From IMG/VR virus record IMGVR_UViG_3300045538_000409: a DNA stretch of 64,000 nucleotides; one strand, 5' to 3'. This DNA comes from a virus. Lineage: Duplodnaviria > Heunggongvirae > Uroviricota > Caudoviricetes. Position numbers and translations under genes: made by a program. Positions 20,033 to 45,157 of this stretch are shown piece by piece. Each line of letters starts with the position of its first letter. Within the stretch, counting starts at the first letter, position 1. Below the pieces are notes generated by a model that saw only the letters and a list, made by a program, of their open reading frames with translations, was not told where the DNA came from and ran no database searches.

Positions 20033-20403
20033 GGGGCTGACATTGGAAATTGATTATTAAACGATTCTAATTGTAAGGAAGTAGTGTTAAATGGAAACAC
20101 TTTAATAACCTATTAATACTTTTAAATGACAACGAATTTAACGTTGAACAAAACTTCCTTGAAACTTCAATAGTTGAAGTATATAAAGGAGAGGTAGCAT
20201 TAGCCTAATTCGAGTAATGTATTTGTGGTAAAACCACACAACACACCAATACTAAGGTGTTAAAATAGTAAATATGGATTACTACACACCATATAAACAA
20301 CGTAGTAGATTTTTTGGAAAGTTTTTTATAAAAACTATGACCTAAACTTCTAGAAATCATTTAAAACTTTAATAAGATTTGAGTTCGAATCTCAACAGCT
20401 CCA
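20033..20403 (+). ncRNA. ssrA: tmRNA (ssrA), one-piece, CCA not encoded
   Basis: 5' end GGGGCUGACAUUGG and 3' end GAUUUGAG-UUCGAAU-CUCAA-CAGCUCC-A. The acceptor pair GGGGCUG/CAGCUCC is identical to E. coli ssrA, and the T-arm is canonical. A promoter (TTGACA 19970 plus TATATATTTG 19991) lies upstream. A candidate tag ORF starts at ~20127 and ends ...GEVALA-UAA at 20207-20209. Confidence 0.75.
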
Positions 20404-20435
20404 CGAATATTACTTTTTATCATTTTATGTAAAAA

Positions 20436-28390: not shown

Positions 28391-29557
28391 ATGAAACAAA
28401 TAATTAAAAAAATGGTTAAACAAAAGTTACTTAAAGAAGAGAGGATAAAGTTAAATATACCTATTCCTGATGACATAATACAAATTAAAGATATATTCGT
28501 CAATAACGGATATAAGTTATATATTGTGGGTGGTTCTGTACGTGACTCATTACTTAACAAACCTATTAAGGATTACGATTTAGCTACTGACGCAACACCA
28601 GACCAAGTTGAAGATATAATGAATAAATCTGGTTTTAAAACACTACCAACTGGTAAAGCATTTGGGGTTATAAATGTGTTTACAGATACTAATGAATACG
28701 AAGTGGCCACGCTTAGGTCAGATGGGGAATATACAGATTCAAGGAGACCTGACTCAGTAACATTCAGCGATATAAACTCAGATGCAGCCAGAAGAGACCT
28801 GACATGTAACGCTTTATATTATGATATAGATACCAAGGAAGTCATTGACTTAGTTGGTGGTATAAATGACCTTAGAAAAGGTATAATACGAACTGTAGGT
28901 AAACCAGAAGATAGATTTAAAGAGGATAAGTTAAGAATTCTAAGAAGTATTCGTTTTGCGGGTAGATTTGGTTCAGAATTGGACCCCAACATTGATAAAG
29001 TATTAAGTAATGACAGTAGTCTTAAAGGTATATCACCTGAAAGGATTAGAGATGAGTTCTTAAAGACGATTAAAAGTGCTAAGAGCATACAACAAGTATT
29101 TTTATTAATTGATAAATATAAATTATGGAATGAAATTTTTCCAGGTATTGATATCAATAAGAAGTTTGTTGAATCCAAAGACCCAATTATTGTTATCAGT
29201 ACCCTTATATTAGGTAACGAACCATCGAACTTAAGTAAGATTTTAAATAAATTAACATATTCAATAAGTGAAAATAAAGCTATTACTTTTTTAATTTCAT
29301 TTAGTACATTTAACGATATAAACAATGTGTACAAGATGAAGAAACTATTTAACGCTTCAAATGTTACTAATGAACAATTAAGAGAATTTAATAATATTAA
29401 TAAAATCTTACCAAGTAATGTCGTTGACACATTTATTAATTTCCAACTTAGCGTTACTGGCGACCAAGTTCAAAGTGAATTAGGAATTAAACCAGGACCA
29501 GAAATGGGTAAAACTATTGAAAAAATGGAAATTGATAACTTTAATAAACTTTTATAA
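28391..29557 (+). CDS. cca: tRNA nucleotidyltransferase (CCA-adding enzyme), with N-terminal CTS-like extension
   Basis: Head-domain motifs LYIVGGSVRD, DYDLATDA, RRD(L)TCNALYYD and ATLRSDGEYTDSRRPD. N-terminus MKQIIKKMVKQKLLKE precedes the catalytic core. Confidence 0.8.
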   Translation: MKQIIKKMVKQKLLKEERIKLNIPIPDDIIQIKDIFVNNGYKLYIVGGSVRDSLLNKPIKDYDLATDATPDQVEDIMNKSGFKTLPTGKAFGVINVFTDTNEYEVATLRSDGEYTDSRRPDSVTFSDINSDAARRDLTCNALYYDIDTKEVIDLVGGINDLRKGIIRTVGKPEDRFKEDKLRILRSIRFAGRFGSELDPNIDKVLSNDSSLKGISPERIRDEFLKTIKSAKSIQQVFLLIDKYKLWNEIFPGIDINKKFVESKDPIIVISTLILGNEPSNLSKILNKLTYSISENKAITFLISFSTFNDINNVYKMKKLFNASNVTNEQLREFNNINKILPSNVVDTFINFQLSVTGDQVQSELGIKPGPEMGKTIEKMEIDNFNKLL

Positions 29558-34207: not shown

Positions 34208-35008
34208 ATGAAAAAAGTAATTTATTTAGCAATGGCAATCTTTGGGTTATCATTGACATCATGCGAAACAGTATCTCCAGGACACAAGGGTGTGGAAATT
34301 TCTTGGGGTGGTGAGACAAATTTACAAACAACTTATAATGAAGGTATGGCAACTGGTCTACACTGGATTTGGGATGAAATGGTAGAGTACGATGTTAGAC
34401 AAAAAACGCTAGTTGAAAAGTTTGAGTTTAACGACAACAACAACATGACAACTAATGTGGAAATATCGTTAGATTATAACTTAAATCCTGATAAGGTAAC
34501 TTTGTTACATACTCAGATTAGTGATATTGAGACAAAAATCCTCAAGACACTTAAGTCAGCAGGTAAGGAAGTTGTTCCACAATATTCGGCAGTTGAATTG
34601 AATATTACTAAGAGGCAAGAAGCGGAAGATAAACTTAACGCAATCCTTGCTAGGGAATTACCAGAATTCTATGTTCAATTAGCGAGAGTTCAAATGACTG
34701 ATGTTGACATCCCACCAGCAGTAGCTAAATTAGCTGAAGAAACAGCAGTTCAACTTGGTAGAAATGAATTAGCAACTAAGAAAGAAGCTGAACAAAAGTC
34801 ATTAGCTAAGGCTAAGGTAGCAACAGCACAAGGTAATTTTGACGCTGGTATTCTAGATGCTAAGACTAAGGAGTTATTGTCTAAACCAGAATTACTTAAG
34901 TTGAAAGAATTAGAGGTTGATATGGAATACGCTAAAAAAGGTGTTTCAAAATATGGAACTAACAATGTCTTTGGTGGTAATGGTGCAACTGTCATTAAAG
35001 GTTTATAA
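34208..35008 (+). CDS. SPFH/band-7 (prohibitin/HflKC-like) domain lipoprotein
   Basis: Lipobox LSLTSC, then VSPGHKGVEISWGG...VEYDVRQKT, typical of the SPFH domain start. Confidence 0.6.
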   Translation: MKKVIYLAMAIFGLSLTSCETVSPGHKGVEISWGGETNLQTTYNEGMATGLHWIWDEMVEYDVRQKTLVEKFEFNDNNNMTTNVEISLDYNLNPDKVTLLHTQISDIETKILKTLKSAGKEVVPQYSAVELNITKRQEAEDKLNAILARELPEFYVQLARVQMTDVDIPPAVAKLAEETAVQLGRNELATKKEAEQKSLAKAKVATAQGNFDAGILDAKTKELLSKPELLKLKELEVDMEYAKKGVSKYGTNNVFGGNGATVIKGL

Positions 35009-35868
35009 TGAAAATTATTAGATATCCAGATGGTTCTTCTTACGTAAAGTTAGAAGAACCAATATCTAAAGAAATAATATTTAGATTAAATACTTACGAA
35101 GATTTGTGGCATTTAAACCAAATTGTTGATGTTTATAATTATAACAATATAGTACCTACCATAACTATACCTAATCTTATAGATGCTCAAGCTGATAGAA
35201 GGTTTAATGATAATGAAAGTAGTGGCTTGAAATTAGTATGTAAATTTTTAAACAATTTAAATGCTAATTTTAAAATATTTCATCCACATAATCCTGAAGC
35301 GGTTGAAGCTTTAATGGATAACGTTAAAATTATTGAGAATCATTCATTTATTAAAGAAGTATTATCTGAAATATATTGTGATAATAATAGTATACTTAGA
35401 GACCTTGGGTTATTTTACCATACTAAATCAGAACTTTACGATAATTTAATTTTATTTTCAAGTGATTCTGGTGGATTCAAACCTCTTATGAAACTTTGTG
35501 ATAAAATTAATTGGAAAGGTGAAACTTTTTCAGCTAGTAAATCTCGTAAATATGAAAATGGTGAAACTAAATTAATACAACAAGTTAATCGTGAAGATTT
35601 TGGTGGTAAAGACATTCTTATTATCGATGACATTTGTGTATATGGAAAAACTTTTAAAGGTTTATATAAATTACTTAAAGAACGTAATTGTGGTAAATTA
35701 TATTTAGCTGTTAGCCATTTGACTATAGAACATCACCCACAAGATAGTGTATTTGAATATTTCGATAAGGTTTTTTGTACGAATAGTAAGTATGACGAAT
35801 ATACTGCTGAAAATGAACTTAGAGAAATGTTAATACCGCAAAATTTAGAAATTATAAAATTATTTTAA
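35008..35868 (+). CDS. PRPP-synthetase-like / type I phosphoribosyltransferase-domain protein
   Basis: PRPP-binding loop DILIIDDICVYGKTF and an N-terminal Prs-like region. Start overlaps the upstream stop (ATGA). Confidence 0.5.
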   Translation: MKIIRYPDGSSYVKLEEPISKEIIFRLNTYEDLWHLNQIVDVYNYNNIVPTITIPNLIDAQADRRFNDNESSGLKLVCKFLNNLNANFKIFHPHNPEAVEALMDNVKIIENHSFIKEVLSEIYCDNNSILRDLGLFYHTKSELYDNLILFSSDSGGFKPLMKLCDKINWKGETFSASKSRKYENGETKLIQQVNREDFGGKDILIIDDICVYGKTFKGLYKLLKERNCGKLYLAVSHLTIEHHPQDSVFEYFDKVFCTNSKYDEYTAENELREMLIPQNLEIIKLF

Positions 35869-35870
35869 TT

Positions 35871-38579
35871 ATGCAAAAATTAAATCAAACGTTTAAAATT
35901 AACCCTTTGTATGAAGCAGATGGGTATAAAGTAGCTCATCATAAAATGTTAGCTCCTGGAACTACTAAATTATATGGTACTTGGATACCTAGAAGCTTAA
36001 AGTATATGCCTAGCGGTATTGATAAGATTATGTCAGCAGGACAACAATTAGTTGTTAGACATTTACATAGTACTTTTCAAGAAAATTTCTTTGATAAAGA
36101 TTCTAATGTTGCTATACAGTTTGCAAATGATATGTCAGCTTACTTAGGCATGGATTATGATGGAACACATTTTTTAGATTTGTATAAGTTAGGTTACTTA
36201 CCAATTAGAGTTAAATCTTTACCAGAAGGTATTTTCACACAACCTAATATTCCACACATGACTTTTGTTAATACTGTTGATGGTTATGCTTGGTTAACTT
36301 TATTTTTAGAGACTTATATTTCTAAATTAGCTTGGCAAATGCCTACTGTAGCTACTATAGGTCATAAGTTTAAAGAAAATGCTAAAGCATGGGTAAATTA
36401 TACTGATAAAGAAAATTTATGGTTAGCTGATTTTATGTGTCATGATTTTCATAGTAGAGGTGGAAATCCATTTACATCAATAGCTTGTGGTTTAGGGTTT
36501 TCTTTATCAAATAAAGGTAGTGATACACTTAATATTATCCCCGCTAGTAGATATTATTACGATGAAGCTGAAGATAGTATGCCTATTTTTTCAGTTAATG
36601 CTAGTGAACATTCAGTTTCTACAACTAAAATTTTTACAGTAGGTGAGCAACAAATGATAGCAGATTGGTTAAAGTTATTTCCTACTGGTATTTTAAGTGT
36701 TGTTAGCGATACTTTTTCTCTTTGGGATTGTATTGAATACTTTAAAGAGCTTAAAGATGAAATTATGGGTAGAGATGGTAAGCTAGTGTGTAGACCAGAT
36801 TGTCTAGATGATAAATCTCAAATATTAACACCTAAAGGATGGAAATATTTTAAAGATTTAACAGAAAATGATTTAGTGGCACAAGTAAAAAAAGATGGTA
36901 TTTATGAATTTGTAAAACCTTTAAAAATAATTAACGAACCTTATGAAGGTGATATGTATGAAATAAGAGATTTTCATGGAAAAATAGATTTAGTAGTTAC
37001 TCCAAATCATAGATTGGTTTCTTATAAAAATTCAGATAATTCTATCTCTATAAAAGAAGCTTCTGATTACAAACAAAATTATTGGGAATATAAAAAATTA
37101 AGAAGTCCTAAATCTCAAAGTAAAGGTAGAGAGTTAACAGCCTATGAAAGATTTTTAATTGCCTTACAGGCTGATGGTTGTATTAAATATGTAAATAAAG
37201 ATTTAAGTACAAGAATAGAATTTAACTTTAAAAAAGAAAGAAAACACGATAGATTACTAGAAATACTTAAAAATACAGATTTAGAATATAACGTTTATTT
37301 TACTAAATCAAGACAAGGTCAATCTACATTTAGTGTGTTAATACCTTATAATAGAATGGTATCTAAAACATTTGATTGGGTAGATACTTCTAATTTAGAT
37401 AGTTTGTGGGCGGAAGAATTTATAGAAGAACTAAAATATTGGGATTCTTCTATTAGAAATGATGGTAGATTTAAGTATGATACTACAATTAAAGAAAATA
37501 TTGATGTTGTAGAACTTGTAGCAATTGCTGCGGGAAAAGGTGTTTATATTTCTGAGTCAGAAGATAATAGAAAAAAACATTTTTCTAATGTATATACTGC
37601 TCATATTTTAGATAATCCTTATGTTGGTGGACAGTCTATTACTAAAAACAAAATACATTATAAAGGAACTATACATTGTGTAAAAGTACCAACAGGTATG
37701 ATTTTAGTAAAAAGAAATCAAGGTGTTTGTGTTACTGGCAATAGTGGAGACCCTGTAGATATTATTTGTGGAGTTTCAACTAAATATCGAGATTTATCAG
37801 CATACCTTCCTGAAGGAGAAGTTTTACCTGAATATTTCGAAGAAGTTTTATTAGAAGAAGTTAGGGAAGATACCCCGCATGGAAAACGTGGTGTTAGAGA
37901 ATATGAAAATGTCTATACCGTAAGAGGTAAACTGTATAAGGCTAAAATACACAACATATCTTGGAATAGACATGATAAACAATACTATTTCATCGATATG
38001 TGGGAAAAAGCAGAAATTACAATCGAAGAATTAGAATGGAAACCTTCTGATAAAGGTGTAATAGAACTTCTTTGGGATATATTTGGCGGTACTGTAAATG
38101 AAGAAGGTTATAAAGTATTAGACCCACACATTGGGGCTATTTATGGTGACAGTATTAATCTTGAAAGACAAATTCAAATCTATGAAAGACTTGAAGCTAA
38201 AGGATTTGCTGCTAGTAATATTGTTTTAGGTGTAGGTAGCTATACTATGGTTATGCTTACGAGAGATTCAGCTGGGTATGCAGCTAAAGGTAGTTGGTTT
38301 GAAGTTAAAGAGGAAACAGGTAATTTGTTATTAACCGACCCACCACAACCCGAATACAAGGTAACATCATATAACATCTACAAAGACCCAGTAACTGATG
38401 GTGGTAGTAAAAAATCACTTAAGGGTTTGATGCAAGTTAAATTAGTAGATAATGAATATGTGGTAAATCAAGAATGCACTTGGGAACAAGAAGAAGATTC
38501 TGAATTAAAAACCATCTATGAAAATGGTGTGTTTAAAAATCAAACTACTTTAAGTGAAATTAGAAGCAGAGTTAGTTAA
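35871..38579 (+). CDS. nadV: nicotinamide phosphoribosyltransferase (NAMPT/NadV) interrupted by a 314-aa LAGLIDADG intein
   Basis: N-extein NPLYEADGYKVAHHKMLAPGTTKLY matches NAMPT [24 protein letters not shown]. C-extein GAIYGDSINL...VLGVGSYTMVMLTRD matches VIQGDGVDIN...AFGSGGGLLQKLTRD. The extein junction RPD|SGDP is the conserved active-site RPDSG. Confidence 0.85.
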   Translation: MQKLNQTFKINPLYEADGYKVAHHKMLAPGTTKLYGTWIPRSLKYMPSGIDKIMSAGQQLVVRHLHSTFQENFFDKDSNVAIQFANDMSAYLGMDYDGTHFLDLYKLGYLPIRVKSLPEGIFTQPNIPHMTFVNTVDGYAWLTLFLETYISKLAWQMPTVATIGHKFKENAKAWVNYTDKENLWLADFMCHDFHSRGGNPFTSIACGLGFSLSNKGSDTLNIIPASRYYYDEAEDSMPIFSVNASEHSVSTTKIFTVGEQQMIADWLKLFPTGILSVVSDTFSLWDCIEYFKELKDEIMGRDGKLVCRPDCLDDKSQILTPKGWKYFKDLTENDLVAQVKKDGIYEFVKPLKIINEPYEGDMYEIRDFHGKIDLVVTPNHRLVSYKNSDNSISIKEASDYKQNYWEYKKLRSPKSQSKGRELTAYERFLIALQADGCIKYVNKDLSTRIEFNFKKERKHDRLLEILKNTDLEYNVYFTKSRQGQSTFSVLIPYNRMVSKTFDWVDTSNLDSLWAEEFIEELKYWDSSIRNDGRFKYDTTIKENIDVVELVAIAAGKGVYISESEDNRKKHFSNVYTAHILDNPYVGGQSITKNKIHYKGTIHCVKVPTGMILVKRNQGVCVTGNSGDPVDIICGVSTKYRDLSAYLPEGEVLPEYFEEVLLEEVREDTPHGKRGVREYENVYTVRGKLYKAKIHNISWNRHDKQYYFIDMWEKAEITIEELEWKPSDKGVIELLWDIFGGTVNEEGYKVLDPHIGAIYGDSINLERQIQIYERLEAKGFAASNIVLGVGSYTMVMLTRDSAGYAAKGSWFEVKEETGNLLLTDPPQPEYKVTSYNIYKDPVTDGGSKKSLKGLMQVKLVDNEYVVNQECTWEQEEDSELKTIYENGVFKNQTTLSEIRSRVS
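36801..37742 (+). mobile_element. intein with LAGLIDADG homing-endonuclease domain inserted in nadV
   Basis: Begins with Cys1 (CLDDKSQ), has block B TPNH, LAGLIDADG-like LIALQADGC, and ends ...VCVTGN followed by Ser+1. Removing it restores the contiguous NAMPT motif RPD-SGDP. Confidence 0.75.
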
Positions 38580-38583
38580 ATAT

Positions 38584-38973
38584 ATGAGATTCATATTAAT
38601 ATTATTTATATCCTTAACCCTACAACAAGATAAGTTAGTAGGGTTTTGGATTATATCCACAAATGATTTAATAATTGAATGTTATGAGAAAAACGATAAA
38701 TATTATGGAAAAATACATTGGTTTAAAGACAATAATCCAGACAAGAAAAAATATTCAGAGAACGGTGTAATTAAATCAAAGTGGAATGGGTTTGTAGTCA
38801 TGTCAGACTTCACTTATATTGGTGATAGATTATCTGGTAAGATATATGACGTTAAAAATGGTCAAGAATATGACGCTTACATTGAAATAAATGGTGATAG
38901 GATAAAAGTAATTACTTATGTTTTTTTACCTATATTTGGTAAAGAAATGGAATTTAGAAGATATAAAAAATAA
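38584..38973 (+). CDS. hypothetical secreted protein
   Basis: Track ORF 38554..38973. The internal start MRFILILF gives a signal peptide and avoids overlap with nadV. Confidence 0.4.
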   Translation: MRFILILFISLTLQQDKLVGFWIISTNDLIIECYEKNDKYYGKIHWFKDNNPDKKKYSENGVIKSKWNGFVVMSDFTYIGDRLSGKIYDVKNGQEYDAYIEINGDRIKVITYVFLPIFGKEMEFRRYKK

Positions 38974-38979
38974 AAAAAA

Positions 38980-40095
38980 ATGGAACTAAACATCGTTAAA
39001 CATATAAAAAAATATGGTCTAGAAAAGGCCATTATTGATTTTGATTTAATATGCAAGGAGAATGGCAATCTTATATTACTTAAATACAATCAAATATCCT
39101 CTCCAATGGACAAAATAGAGGTTCAAGAATCTAGAGGTTTAATATTAGAAAAAGGTACATATAAGGTTATTTCAATGGCCTTTATGAAATTTTTCAATCA
39201 TGGTGAAACTAACGCAGCAAATATTGACTGGGACTCAGCGCATGTTTTAGATAAATTAGATGGGTCGCTACTTTCTTTATATCATTATAATGACACTTGG
39301 AATGTTTGTACAACAGGAACCATTAATGGTGAAGGTGAAGTTAATAATAAATATGGAACTACATTTAGAGATTTGTTTTGGGGTACAATAAATAGTAAAT
39401 ATAATTTCAATATTAATAAATTAAATAGTGACTATATATATGCTTTTGAATTAACGACACCTTATAATATTGTTGTTAAACCACATAGTGAATCATCCGC
39501 AACACTTCTTACAATTAGAAATAGAGAAAATCTTAAAGAAATACCTTATAATGAGTTAATTCCAGTTGCCAATGAATTAGGTGTACCTTTAGTTAAAAGG
39601 TATGATTTTAACATTAAAAATGTTGATGTTTTAATTAAGACTTTTGAAAATATGCCATGGTCAGAGGAAGGTTATATTGTTTTAGATGGTAACTTTAGTA
39701 GAATTAAGATAAAAAATCCAGCATATGTTGCGGTTCATTTATTAAAAAATAGAACATCAGAACATTCAATAATGGAAATTGTTAAGTCTAATGAAATTGA
39801 AGAGTTTGCATCAACATTTATAGAGAGAAGAGAAGAGATTTATAATCTTCATAAAAACTATAATGAATTAATTAATAAATTAGAAAATATATGGAAATTG
39901 CTTGAACCATTAAAACCAAAAGACATATCTCCAGAAGAAAAAAAGAGGTATGCTATGGAAGTCTTTAGAGTATGTGAAGAAAATGATATTAAGATGTTTA
40001 CAGGACTTTATTTTGGTTTAAACGATGGTAAAATTGAATCTATTGGTGAATATATGATGAATTATGATAATAAAAGATTATATCAAATTTTATGA
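38980..40095 (+). CDS. ATP-dependent RNA ligase (Rnl family)
   Basis: Nucleotidyltransferase motif I KLDGS, motif IV EGYIVLDG and motif V RIKIKNPAY. Confidence 0.75.
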   Translation: MELNIVKHIKKYGLEKAIIDFDLICKENGNLILLKYNQISSPMDKIEVQESRGLILEKGTYKVISMAFMKFFNHGETNAANIDWDSAHVLDKLDGSLLSLYHYNDTWNVCTTGTINGEGEVNNKYGTTFRDLFWGTINSKYNFNINKLNSDYIYAFELTTPYNIVVKPHSESSATLLTIRNRENLKEIPYNELIPVANELGVPLVKRYDFNIKNVDVLIKTFENMPWSEEGYIVLDGNFSRIKIKNPAYVAVHLLKNRTSEHSIMEIVKSNEIEEFASTFIERREEIYNLHKNYNELINKLENIWKLLEPLKPKDISPEEKKRYAMEVFRVCEENDIKMFTGLYFGLNDGKIESIGEYMMNYDNKRLYQIL

Positions 40096-43981: not shown

Positions 43982-45157
43982 ATGAAACAGATAACACATG
44001 AATATTTAGTAGAAAATAATCTTATATTATTTGAAGTTATAGTTGGTAGTCAAGCACACGGGACTAGTTTACCTACTAGTGACGAAGACCGAAAATTCGT
44101 ATATATTTTACCAGAAGAATTTATTTTGGGTAATAAATATGTTGAACAAATTGATATCAACAAGGACTATACTGGCTGGGAGATAAGAAGATTCTTAGAG
44201 TTGTTAGAGTCTAATAATCCTACCGTATTTGAAATTTTGTATAGTCCAGAGGATTGTATAATTACAAAACATCCATTATTTGATATATTAATAAATAATA
44301 GAGATAAGTTTATCACTAAGATTTGTAAAAACTCATTTGGCGGATATGCACGCCAACAGATTACTAAGGCGAAGGCGCTTAATAAAAAACAGAACTGGGA
44401 AAAAGAAAAAATAACTCGTAAAGATGTCTTAGATTTTTGTTACGTAATCGAAGGTAATAAGACTACCCCATGGAGATTATGGAATGAAGCTAATCACTAC
44501 GATGAAAAATTTATTGGTGTGGTAAACACACCGAACGCTAGGGATATTTATGCGGTTTATTTTGATGTTGACGCTAACAATTGCTTCAGCGAGAAAATGC
44601 CAGAAGAGCTAAGAGAGGCAGCTAAAAAATGGAGAAAAGAAAGTGGTGCATCAATGGGGTTTGGCTATAAAGGGCTTGTAAAGAGTGGTGAGGGTAATAA
44701 TATTACTGAATCAAACCAATTAAGACTATCTAGTATTCCTAAAGGTGAAAAACCTATTGCAGTTATTTCTTATAATAAGGATGGTTACACTCAGCATTGT
44801 AAGGATTATAGAGAATACCAAGAATGGCTTGAAAAACGTAATGAAACTAGATATGTTGAAACTAAAACACATGGTCAACAAATAGACGGTAAAAATATGT
44901 TACACTGTGTTAGACTTATTAATATGGCAACAGAAATAGCTGAAGGTAAAGGTGTTCAAGTCCGCAGACCAGATAGAGAATACTTATTATCTATCAGAAG
45001 GGGTGAAGTACCCTTAGAAGAACTTATTGATTTAGCTAATGAAAAAATTAACAAGTTAGATGAGTTATTTGATAAATCAAACCTACCTGATAAAGTTGAA
45101 GATGGTTTAGTACATAAATTGTTAGTTGATATTAGAAAAAACTTCTATAATCGATAA
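43982..45157 (+). CDS. putative nucleotidyltransferase (Pol-beta-like fold)
   Basis: N-terminal VGSQAHGTSLPTSDEDRKFVYI matches the GS...DxD motif. The 391-aa specific family is not resolved. Confidence 0.5.
   Translation: MKQITHEYLVENNLILFEVIVGSQAHGTSLPTSDEDRKFVYILPEEFILGNKYVEQIDINKDYTGWEIRRFLELLESNNPTVFEILYSPEDCIITKHPLFDILINNRDKFITKICKNSFGGYARQQITKAKALNKKQNWEKEKITRKDVLDFCYVIEGNKTTPWRLWNEANHYDEKFIGVVNTPNARDIYAVYFDVDANNCFSEKMPEELREAAKKWRKESGASMGFGYKGLVKSGEGNNITESNQLRLSSIPKGEKPIAVISYNKDGYTQHCKDYREYQEWLEKRNETRYVETKTHGQQIDGKNMLHCVRLINMATEIAEGKGVQVRRPDREYLLSIRRGEVPLEELIDLANEKINKLDELFDKSNLPDKVEDGLVHKLLVDIRKNFYNR

Follow-up and report, generated by a model that had tools for sequence, protein, structure and literature searches.

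An insert with the features of a LAGLIDADG intein in the catalytic RPD/SG loop of a phage nicotinamide phosphoribosyltransferase

Phage nicotinamide phosphoribosyltransferase (NAMPT, gene nadV) is part of NAD+ salvage, and some phages use it against host defences that deplete NAD. The virus record IMGVR_UViG_3300045538_000409 (IMG/VR; Caudoviricetes), of which we analysed a stretch of 64,000 nucleotides (nt; "the window" always means this whole stretch), carries a nadV gene whose catalytic loop is interrupted between RPD and SG by 314 additional amino acids (aa). This raises the questions of what the insert is, how an enzyme split in its active site could work, and how the insert could have reached this position. 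We consider it highly probable that the insert is an intein containing a homing-endonuclease domain of the two-motif LAGLIDADG type; this intein would leave the NAMPT precursor by class 1 protein splicing and spread between phages by homing.

The insert in the catalytic loop of NAMPT

The NAMPT homolog of 902 aa is encoded by a single unbroken open reading frame (ORF), as first noticed from the sequence alone, in what we call the original prediction. Judged by homology, the ORF product is a NAMPT/NadV, a type II phosphoribosyltransferase. NCBIfam PRK09198 matches the 902-aa protein in two stretches (E 3e-106); the score of 355.9 falls short of the equivalog cut-off (405), as the match is interrupted by the two insertions. 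Solved NAMPTs (9w5w, 9w5x, 9ke8, human, mouse and rat) are matched with E-values from 7e-78 to 1e-29, always in two pieces, which for 9w5w (E 7e-78) are residues 16-314 and 727-899 of the query. At the insertion point the reference in the alignment with PDB NAMPTs reads ...IRPDSGDP... without a break. The residues which we take to be catalytic in NAMPT (in human numbering H191-D192-F193, R196, H247, R311/D313, GD, GxGS and R392) are invariant on both exteins across a 121-sequence alignment (A4); those of the N-extein are H191-D192-F193, R196, E246-H247, R308 and D310.

The insert is in frame and its translation runs CLDDKSQILTPKGW...KRNQGVCVTGN. It begins (CLDDKSQ) with a Cys directly after RPD (aa 308-310) and ends (VCVTGN) before a Ser+1 that opens SGDP (aa 625-628). 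These boundaries, and likewise the block B motif TPNH and the LAGLIDADG-like LIALQADGC, are those of the original prediction. A second LAGLIDADG-type motif, FIEELKYWDSS, was absent from its list.

Searches with the insert only retrieved the same element from this NAMPT position on further contigs and, over its full length and with 25-35% identity, from unrelated proteins. These include ribonucleotide reductase (RNR) small subunits (SRDE/C...AGN/CLH), a family-4 uracil-DNA glycosylase (GEAPG/C...TGN/SEED), a clamp-loader AAA+ ATPase (LIDE/C), a metallophosphoesterase and N6-adenine methyltransferases (DPPF/Y, then C...CGN/S). The homologs start with a Cys directly after a conserved or catalytic extein motif and end with Gly-Asn before a Ser or Cys. 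Recurrence in unrelated essential motifs with fixed boundaries is the operational signature of an intein.

Profile and structure comparisons point to the same kind of element. A mini-intein profile was made from 11 family members with the endonuclease part removed. It matched the AceL NrdHF intein (6zgq_A) over the whole HINT domain with E 8.9e-13, followed by the MJ0781 intein (2jmz; 2e-4) and the Hedgehog Hint domain (1at0). Family members match Pfam Intein_splicing (5e-7), LAGLIDADG_3 (2.6e-9; four members), Hint_2 and Hom_end_hint. The AlphaFold2 model of the intein, calculated with the family alignment as input, has a pLDDT of 90.5 and a pTM of 0.88. In it, beta-rich N- and C-terminal parts flank two alpha-beta-beta-alpha-beta-beta units, whose leading helices are 114-125 and 201-215. 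The best Foldseek matches in the PDB are the TliVMA and PhoVMA inteins, PI-PfuI and PI-SceI (E 4e-14 to 1e-8). The HINT part matches 6zgq (TM 0.8, normalised to the target) as well as Hedgehog Hint and BIL domains, and the endonuclease part matches I-DmoI and I-Tsp061I (E ~1e-4) as well as the corresponding domains of PI-SceI and PI-PfuI. According to the model, the insert is predicted to have a HINT fold and a duplicated LAGLIDADG endonuclease fold. A LAGLIDADG intein at the catalytic RPD/SG motif of a phage NAMPT, as originally proposed, is therefore borne out by homology, by the family profile and by the predicted fold, and further by the empty sites, the selection and the phylogenetic discordance described below.

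The features of the locus are collected in Table 1. The calculated mass of the precursor is 103.7 kDa; after splicing, the 588-aa ligated extein would have 67.2 kDa and the intein 36.6 kDa. Base composition sets the intein apart from the exteins, with a GC content of 26.1% vs 30.9-33.7%, and of 9% vs 16-19% at third codon positions. Cys1, Thr67, His70, Cys293, Gly313 and Asn314 are invariant in the intein alignments A1/A2. No second copy of the intein family was found in the window by tblastn or by profile search of the six-frame ORFs.

Table 1. Features of the nadV locus in the window (amino acid positions refer to the 902-aa precursor unless marked as intein positions)
Feature	Position (nt)	Strand	Position (aa)	Remarks
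Phosphoribosyl pyrophosphate (PRPP)-synthetase-like phosphoribosyltransferase gene	35008..35868	+		Upstream; Pfam Pribosyltran; ends 2 nt before nadV start
nadV/NAMPT gene	35871..38579	+	1-902	902-aa precursor; stop codon 38577-38579; ORF list and homology
N-extein	35871..36800	+	1-310	Ends ...GKLVCRPD; PDB NAMPT alignment
Intein	36801..37742	+	311-624	314 aa, 942 nt, 36.6 kDa
HINT N-terminal half	36801..37115	+	intein 1-105	Boundary approximate; aligns to 6zgq_A
Cys1 codon	36801..36803	+	intein 1	
Block B, T67-P-N-H70-R71-L72	36999..37016	+	intein 67-72	TPNH at nt 36999-37010, aa 377-380
LAGLIDADG endonuclease domain	37116..37616	+	intein ~106-272	Predicted structure and Foldseek
Endonuclease motif 1, LIALQADGC	37155..37181	+	429-437	Asp125 at 37173-37175
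Conserved Lys145	37233..37235	+	intein 145	Endonuclease domain
Endonuclease motif 2, FIEELKYWDSS	37419..37451	+	517-527	Asp215 at 37443-37445
HINT C-terminal half	37617..37742	+	intein 273-314	Aligns to 6zgq_A fhA(C124)lsVPGk...rsVTG(N)
Block F Cys293	37677..37679	+	intein 293	Context ...IHC293VKVP297TG299...
Block G, VCVT312-G313-N314	37725..37742	+	intein 309-314	Followed by Ser+1
C-extein	37743..38576	+	625-902	Ser+1 (37743-37745) opens the SGDPVDIICG motif
93-aa domain, putatively alpha/beta	37773..38051	+	635-727	Hypervariable NAMPT loop

Splicing chemistry of the intein and its clade

The precursor of 104 kDa would be translated as one chain and would be an inactive NAMPT until spliced, because the loop with Arg308 and Asp310 (equivalents of human R311/D313) is split. 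The catalytic residues of the exteins are invariant; the host gene is therefore subject to selection, which requires that splicing mend the split loop. In a class 1 reaction Cys1 would undergo an N-S acyl shift, aided by Thr67 and His70 of block B, and the N-extein would then be passed to Ser+1. Asn314 would cyclise, with Arg71 probably replacing the missing penultimate His as does Arg69 of the homologous AceL NrdHF intein. A final O-N shift would yield the scarless ...LVCRPDSGDPVDIICG... loop, a 67-kDa NAMPT and the free 36.6-kDa intein; the predicted ligated junction peptide is LVCRPDSGDPVDIICGVSTK. An intein in the catalytic loop would make NAMPT activity strictly dependent on this post-translational step.

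The general architecture is that of PI-SceI, PI-PfuI and the Tli and Pho VMA inteins, in which a pseudo-dimeric two-motif LAGLIDADG domain likewise interrupts the HINT domain, and which share Cys1, TxxH and the terminal Asn. Identity to them is, however, only 10-15%, and they measure 361-454 aa compared to 314 aa here. Classical inteins have a penultimate His, and the classical LAGLIDADG inteins carry Asp and His in block F. The window intein has Gly at the penultimate position, Cys in block F and no equivalent of the block-F His.

Several points weigh against our interpretation. Against Pfam Intein_splicing the insert alone scores 17.6 bits, the cut-off being 35.8, and phmmer searches of the PDB with the full insert or with a hand-made mini-intein gave chance matches only; single-sequence searches are weak, so that recognition needs the family profile. 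The textbook class 1 residues, namely the penultimate His together with Asp and His in block F, are all absent (Gly313, Cys293), although they are typical of the class rather than obligatory. Moreover, the sole biochemically studied relative, the AceL NrdHF intein, uses the block-F Cys and not residue 1 as its first nucleophile (PMC7891396), and given this precedent the class 1 order of steps may be wrong. The endonuclease, too, could be inactive despite its intact motifs.

The AceL NrdHF intein (6zgq; Hoffmann et al. 2020, PMC7891396) is the closest solved and characterised relative of the HINT domain. Both inteins have Ser/Thr-x-x-His-Arg-(Met/Leu) in block B, a Cys at position 4 of block F (C2:4) followed by a Val-Pro kink, a Thr-Gly-Asn end and Ser+1. 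They also have in common the lack of a block-F and a penultimate His, and the AceL intein is phage-derived. The differences are that the AceL intein, proven to be of class 3, begins with Ala1, that it is split with a free-standing GIY-YIG gene between its halves, and that its host is the RNR beta subunit, whereas the window intein starts with Cys1, is contiguous with an internal LAGLIDADG domain and resides in NAMPT. The AceL NrdHF intein splices to completion with a half-time of ~4 min; its Arg69 contacts the C-terminal scissile carbonyl, and an added penultimate His is deleterious (PMC7891396).

Conservation was counted over 238 full-length copies on the family hidden Markov model, taken from the 150 best representative proteins and the proteins of the first search. 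The block B His is kept in all 238 copies, Cys1 in 237, the terminal Asn in 234, the penultimate Gly in 233 and the block B Thr in 228 (Ser in 9). The two acidic residues of the endonuclease (Asp/Glu and Asp) are kept in 222. The block-F Cys is kept in 225 copies; in the other 13 (Ser 7, Asp 5, Gly 1) all other catalytic residues are retained. The +1 residue is Ser (156), Cys (55) or Thr (27), and position 5 of block G varies in the clade (Ser 87, Cys 62, Thr 56). The hallmarks of the clade are Cys1, the block-F Cys, no His in block F or G and an (S/T/C)-G-N end. The C-terminal Gly-Asn, the block-F Cys and the missing His of blocks F and G are family features common with AceL NrdHF, not defects. 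Clusters of 50% identity number 22,469 in the family at E<=1e-3, and 7,222 when E<=1e-30 is required; several copies within one protein are common. The clade is very large and has hardly been characterised, and it is found mainly in phage and metagenomic sequences.

These counts bear on the best of the alternatives, in which the intein would splice by class 3 chemistry or by either route. Cys293 would attack the N-terminal junction and the branched thioester would be passed to Ser+1, while Cys1 would be dispensable, redundant or regulatory, for example in a Cys1-Cys293 disulfide acting as a redox switch. The closest characterised relative being a proven class 3 intein (E 9e-13) speaks for such chemistry, as does the conservation of the block-F Cys; Cys1 is conserved in all copies but one, which is unexpected for a dispensable residue, and the block-F Cys has been exchanged for Asp, Ser or Gly in 13 otherwise intact copies. 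Three inteins with the WCT triplet (Trp, Cys, Thr) are listed as starting with Ser1 or Cys1 (Tori et al. 2010, PMC2807308), a further point in favour. The equivalent residues here, Leu72/Cys293/Thr312, match in two of three positions and lack the Trp; in AceL NrdHF they are Met/Cys/Thr. The class 3 WCT inteins (Bethlehem DnaB; PMC2807308) resemble the window intein in Cys at block-F position 4, Thr at block-G position 5, Ser or Thr at +1 and the link to phages. They differ in having no N-terminal nucleophile, a Trp at block-B position 12 and a penultimate His, where the window intein has Cys1, Leu72 and Gly313.

The lack of a nucleophile at position 1 defines class 3, and here Cys1 is present and nearly invariant in the clade. 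Given Cys1 and the missing Trp, membership in class 3 was not accepted. We favour class 1 because Cys1 is kept more strictly than the block-F Cys and because Asp, the usual class 1 residue, occurs there in a few otherwise intact members. Class 3 or dual chemistry is possible, though in our estimation rather unlikely. As to the origin of the AceL intein itself (SIRDE/A...GN/SMH), it lies at the same RNR-beta site as the Cys1 family member P0014 (SRDE/C...GN/CLH). This agreement, also a point for class 3 chemistry here, suggests that the Ala1 class 3 intein arose within this Cys1 clade.

If Cys293 acted as alternative or primary nucleophile, or formed a regulatory disulfide with Cys1, the clade would bridge class 1 and class 3 chemistry, an idea we put forward tentatively. 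A bridging clade would favour divergence as the origin of class 3 inteins over the separate or convergent origin proposed for them (PMC7664689), and activation of a phage NAD-salvage enzyme could then depend on the redox state. Thousands of natural variants that combine Cys1 with a block-F Cys and lack catalytic histidines are available in the clade, and its one studied relative is a fast and clean-splicing intein of biotechnological interest.

Empty sites, homing and the histories of intein and extein

Among the 120 closest NAMPT clusters the RPD/SG site is occupied in 4, the window's own protein included, and empty (...RPDSG(D/N)P...) in 116. The nearest NAMPT of a cultured phage, from Leptolyngbya phage Lbo-JY46, has an empty site that reads ...VIRPDSGDPVDIICG.... 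In the allele P0029 (GCA_013558355.1, contig JACCDH011348752, locus L007 3001-5520) the DNA of the N-extein is mostly 90-100% identical to that of the window. Its empty RPD/SG site, AGGGATGGTAAGCTAGTAATTAGACCTGAT/AGTGGAGACCCTGTTGATATTATTTGTGGT, matches the window's ligated sequence at 53 of 60 nt. In P0029 a different site, FSVNA/C...ISGN/SEHS, holds an intein of 316 aa, which belongs to the same family and is 35% identical to that of the window. This site corresponds to aa 244/245 (nt 36600-36605) of the window's NAMPT, directly before E246-H247 and thus beside the equivalent of catalytic His247. Closely related phages with different inteins at different catalytic motifs of NAMPT are as expected for active homing elements. 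NAMPT can be counted among the intein hosts, and its two separate insertion sites each adjoin catalytic residues.

In the phage collection, tblastn detected the intein family in 309 records, mostly in RNR subunits. The same NAMPT site is occupied in at least 11 deposited phage records, with 38-47% identity over 100% of the intein: the Staphylococcus Kayvirus phages Stab20 (g210), vB_Sau_Clo6, V1SA09, T-SE-G1, T-SE-G2, Stab23, phiSNIID, O1-102, B2-102 and T2-102, and Citrobacter phage Tr1. The inteins of the Stab20 group and of Tr1 belong to the same family, interrupt the same point (IRPD/C...CGN/SGDP) and accompany the same pair of a prs-like gene and nadV; their lineages have diverged from that of the window intein and the hosts differ. 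An intein in a phage NAMPT is thus present as predicted, but it is unique neither to this phage nor, in view of the second site, to this position. The NadV of Kayvirus fRuSau02 has 489 aa, and inteins are reported to be absent from this genome (PMC5618024); the RPD/SG site is therefore polymorphic within Kayvirus too.

All of the intein-bearing phage records annotate a plain nicotinamide phosphoribosyltransferase. In the window and in these at least 11 GenBank genes, products of 796-902 aa are labelled NAMPT, while the mature products would be an enzyme of 489-588 aa and a free endonuclease. We found no description of a NAMPT/NadV intein in the literature, a provisional result as most subscription journals were outside the search, and papers that contain both intein and NAMPT terms treat them separately. 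The NAMPT intein is an element of an ordinary kind, and as an intein host NAMPT is provisionally new to the searchable literature.

Between the window and the intein-bearing allele P0072 the inteins are 88% and the exteins 73% identical, with synonymous divergence (dS) of 0.65 for the intein and 1.74 for the N-extein. Compared to P0036 the relation is reversed (intein 48%, extein 70%). Judged from these comparisons, the histories of intein and extein disagree. The ratio of nonsynonymous to synonymous substitution (dN/dS) is 0.06-0.11 in both the HINT and the endonuclease part of the intein.

The segment upstream of the intein was considered as a co-conversion tract. In the window the N-flank at 36720-36800 (NAMPT aa 283-310) reads SLWDCIEYFKELKDEIMGRDGKLVCRPD, compared to the clade consensus DLWKLITEYLPANKEAIMARDGKLVIRPD. 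The window's variant resembles the intein-less alleles P0055 and P0046, and the intein-bearing P0028 and P0072 have the consensus flank. The tract (aa 283-307) was rejected on these grounds; the N-flank is a mosaic segment that does not travel with the intein.

The endonuclease domain has two predicted LAGLIDADG helices with acidic ends (LIALQAD125G and FIEELKYWD215S), Asp125 and Asp215 being 90 residues apart; in monomeric two-motif LAGLIDADG enzymes the distance is ~90-100 residues. During co-infection the free intein or the precursor would cut an intein-less nadV within ~20-40 bp spanning the empty site, and repair would then copy the intein into the cut allele. Homing would explain the patchy distribution. 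We propose it because the endonuclease motifs are intact, the domain is under purifying selection and the distribution is patchy and discordant. The likely target is the ~60-nt empty site as found in P0029. The intein would also mark nadV as a gene that is exchanged between co-infecting phages. For the NAMPT intein itself, we infer splicing, the order of its chemical steps and endonuclease activity from the sequence.

Alternatively, the intein might splice but carry a dead endonuclease and be a vertically inherited passenger that is no longer mobile. Many intein endonucleases decay, in P0007 of the same family the second catalytic Asp is a Gly, and with 314 aa the whole intein is small compared to PI-PfuI (454 aa) and the PI-SceI chains (425-430 aa). 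In the window, however, both LAGLIDADG aspartates and the conserved Lys145 are present, and the dN/dS of the endonuclease part (0.07-0.11) equals that of the splicing part. Between hosts the inteins, moreover, resemble each other more closely than the exteins do, which implies a transfer more recent than the divergence of the host genes. We consider loss of mobility unlikely.

Much less probable still is a non-splicing inserted domain or a decayed intein, in which case the uncut 902-aa protein would be an inactive pseudogene product or a NAMPT with a large loop. The missing penultimate His and block-F Asp and His, together with the Pfam score under threshold, would fit decay, but the same atypical residues occur in an intein that splices in minutes (PMC7891396) and all nucleophiles of the window intein are intact. 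Although the catalytic loop is split, the extein catalytic residues are invariant and the extein dN/dS is 0.1-0.25. The recurrence of the element in many unrelated essential motifs would be tolerable only if it removes itself.

An assembly chimera or frame artefact joining an intein fragment to nadV, for which one could cite the metagenomic type of the sequence and the lack of a close cultured-phage record (in the phage collection Lbo-JY46 is best, with 72% identity over 52% of the query, and no near-identical cultured phage was found), is refuted by the identical 2709-nt gene (0-1 mismatches) with the same neighbours in three independent metagenome assemblies, and by same-site inteins in cultured Staphylococcus and Citrobacter phages whose genomes are complete. 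As for the protein (P0026), it is found unchanged in four metagenome sources. The identical gene in independent assemblies and homology E-values far below chance exclude chance as well as an assembly artefact.

Variable loops of NAMPT and neighbouring genes

An additional non-intein insertion of about 70-90 aa had been proposed after SGDPVDII. The insertion comprises 93 residues, between ...VDIICG634 and K728GVIELLW, in a loop that measures 11-30 residues in short alleles. The module has the conserved motifs TPHGE.G and WNR(Y/H)DKQYYF(I)D and occurs in about half of the 120 closest NAMPTs, both in those with and in those without the intein. P0027 and P0028, otherwise ~90% identical to the window, lack it, and in Citrobacter phage Tr1 it is shorter, with a similar hairpin. 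The 93-aa insertion is a conserved domain of a NAMPT subfamily and not an intein. In other alleles the same place is filled by unrelated segments of 30-100 aa, and the loop is thus a hypervariable insertion point like the positions after aa 77 and aa 255. At these two further points, members of the NAMPT alignment have insertions of 15-32 aa (after aa 77) and 35-100 aa (after aa 255; 100 in P0044), and the NAMPT of the window has no insert at either of them.

The prs-like gene upstream is the usual partner of phage nadV, and the pair is also found in Stab20, Tr1 and Lbo-JY46. Downstream, a DUF2147 ORF of 139 aa with a GTG start (38554-38973, +) overlaps the final 26 nt of nadV, an arrangement that is called in every metagenomic copy. 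With a GC content of 28.6%, PHROG matches, the prs-nadV pair, RNA-repair genes, 11 tRNA genes and a transfer-messenger RNA (tmRNA) gene, the window looks like part of an uncultivated low-GC large phage.

A ClpP protease gene (18833-19570, +; Pfam 2.5e-62) is followed by the tmRNA gene (20033-20404, +), whose tag peptide is EVYKGEVALA; together they would be a phage-borne pair for trans-translation and degradation. The 11 tRNA genes (Met, Cys, three Leu, Asp, Pro, Gly, Thr, Gln and Lys) lie on the + strand within 22429-53761, mostly in two clusters at 46.6-47.9 kb and 53.0-53.8 kb. The RNA-repair genes at 13262-14698, 28391-29557, 38980-40095 and 43982-45157 (all +) form a set of an RtcB-like ligase (phrog_850), a CCA-adding tRNA nucleotidyltransferase, a T4 Rnl1-type RNA ligase and a RlaP-family nucleotidyltransferase, which suggests a counter-measure to host defences that cleave tRNA.

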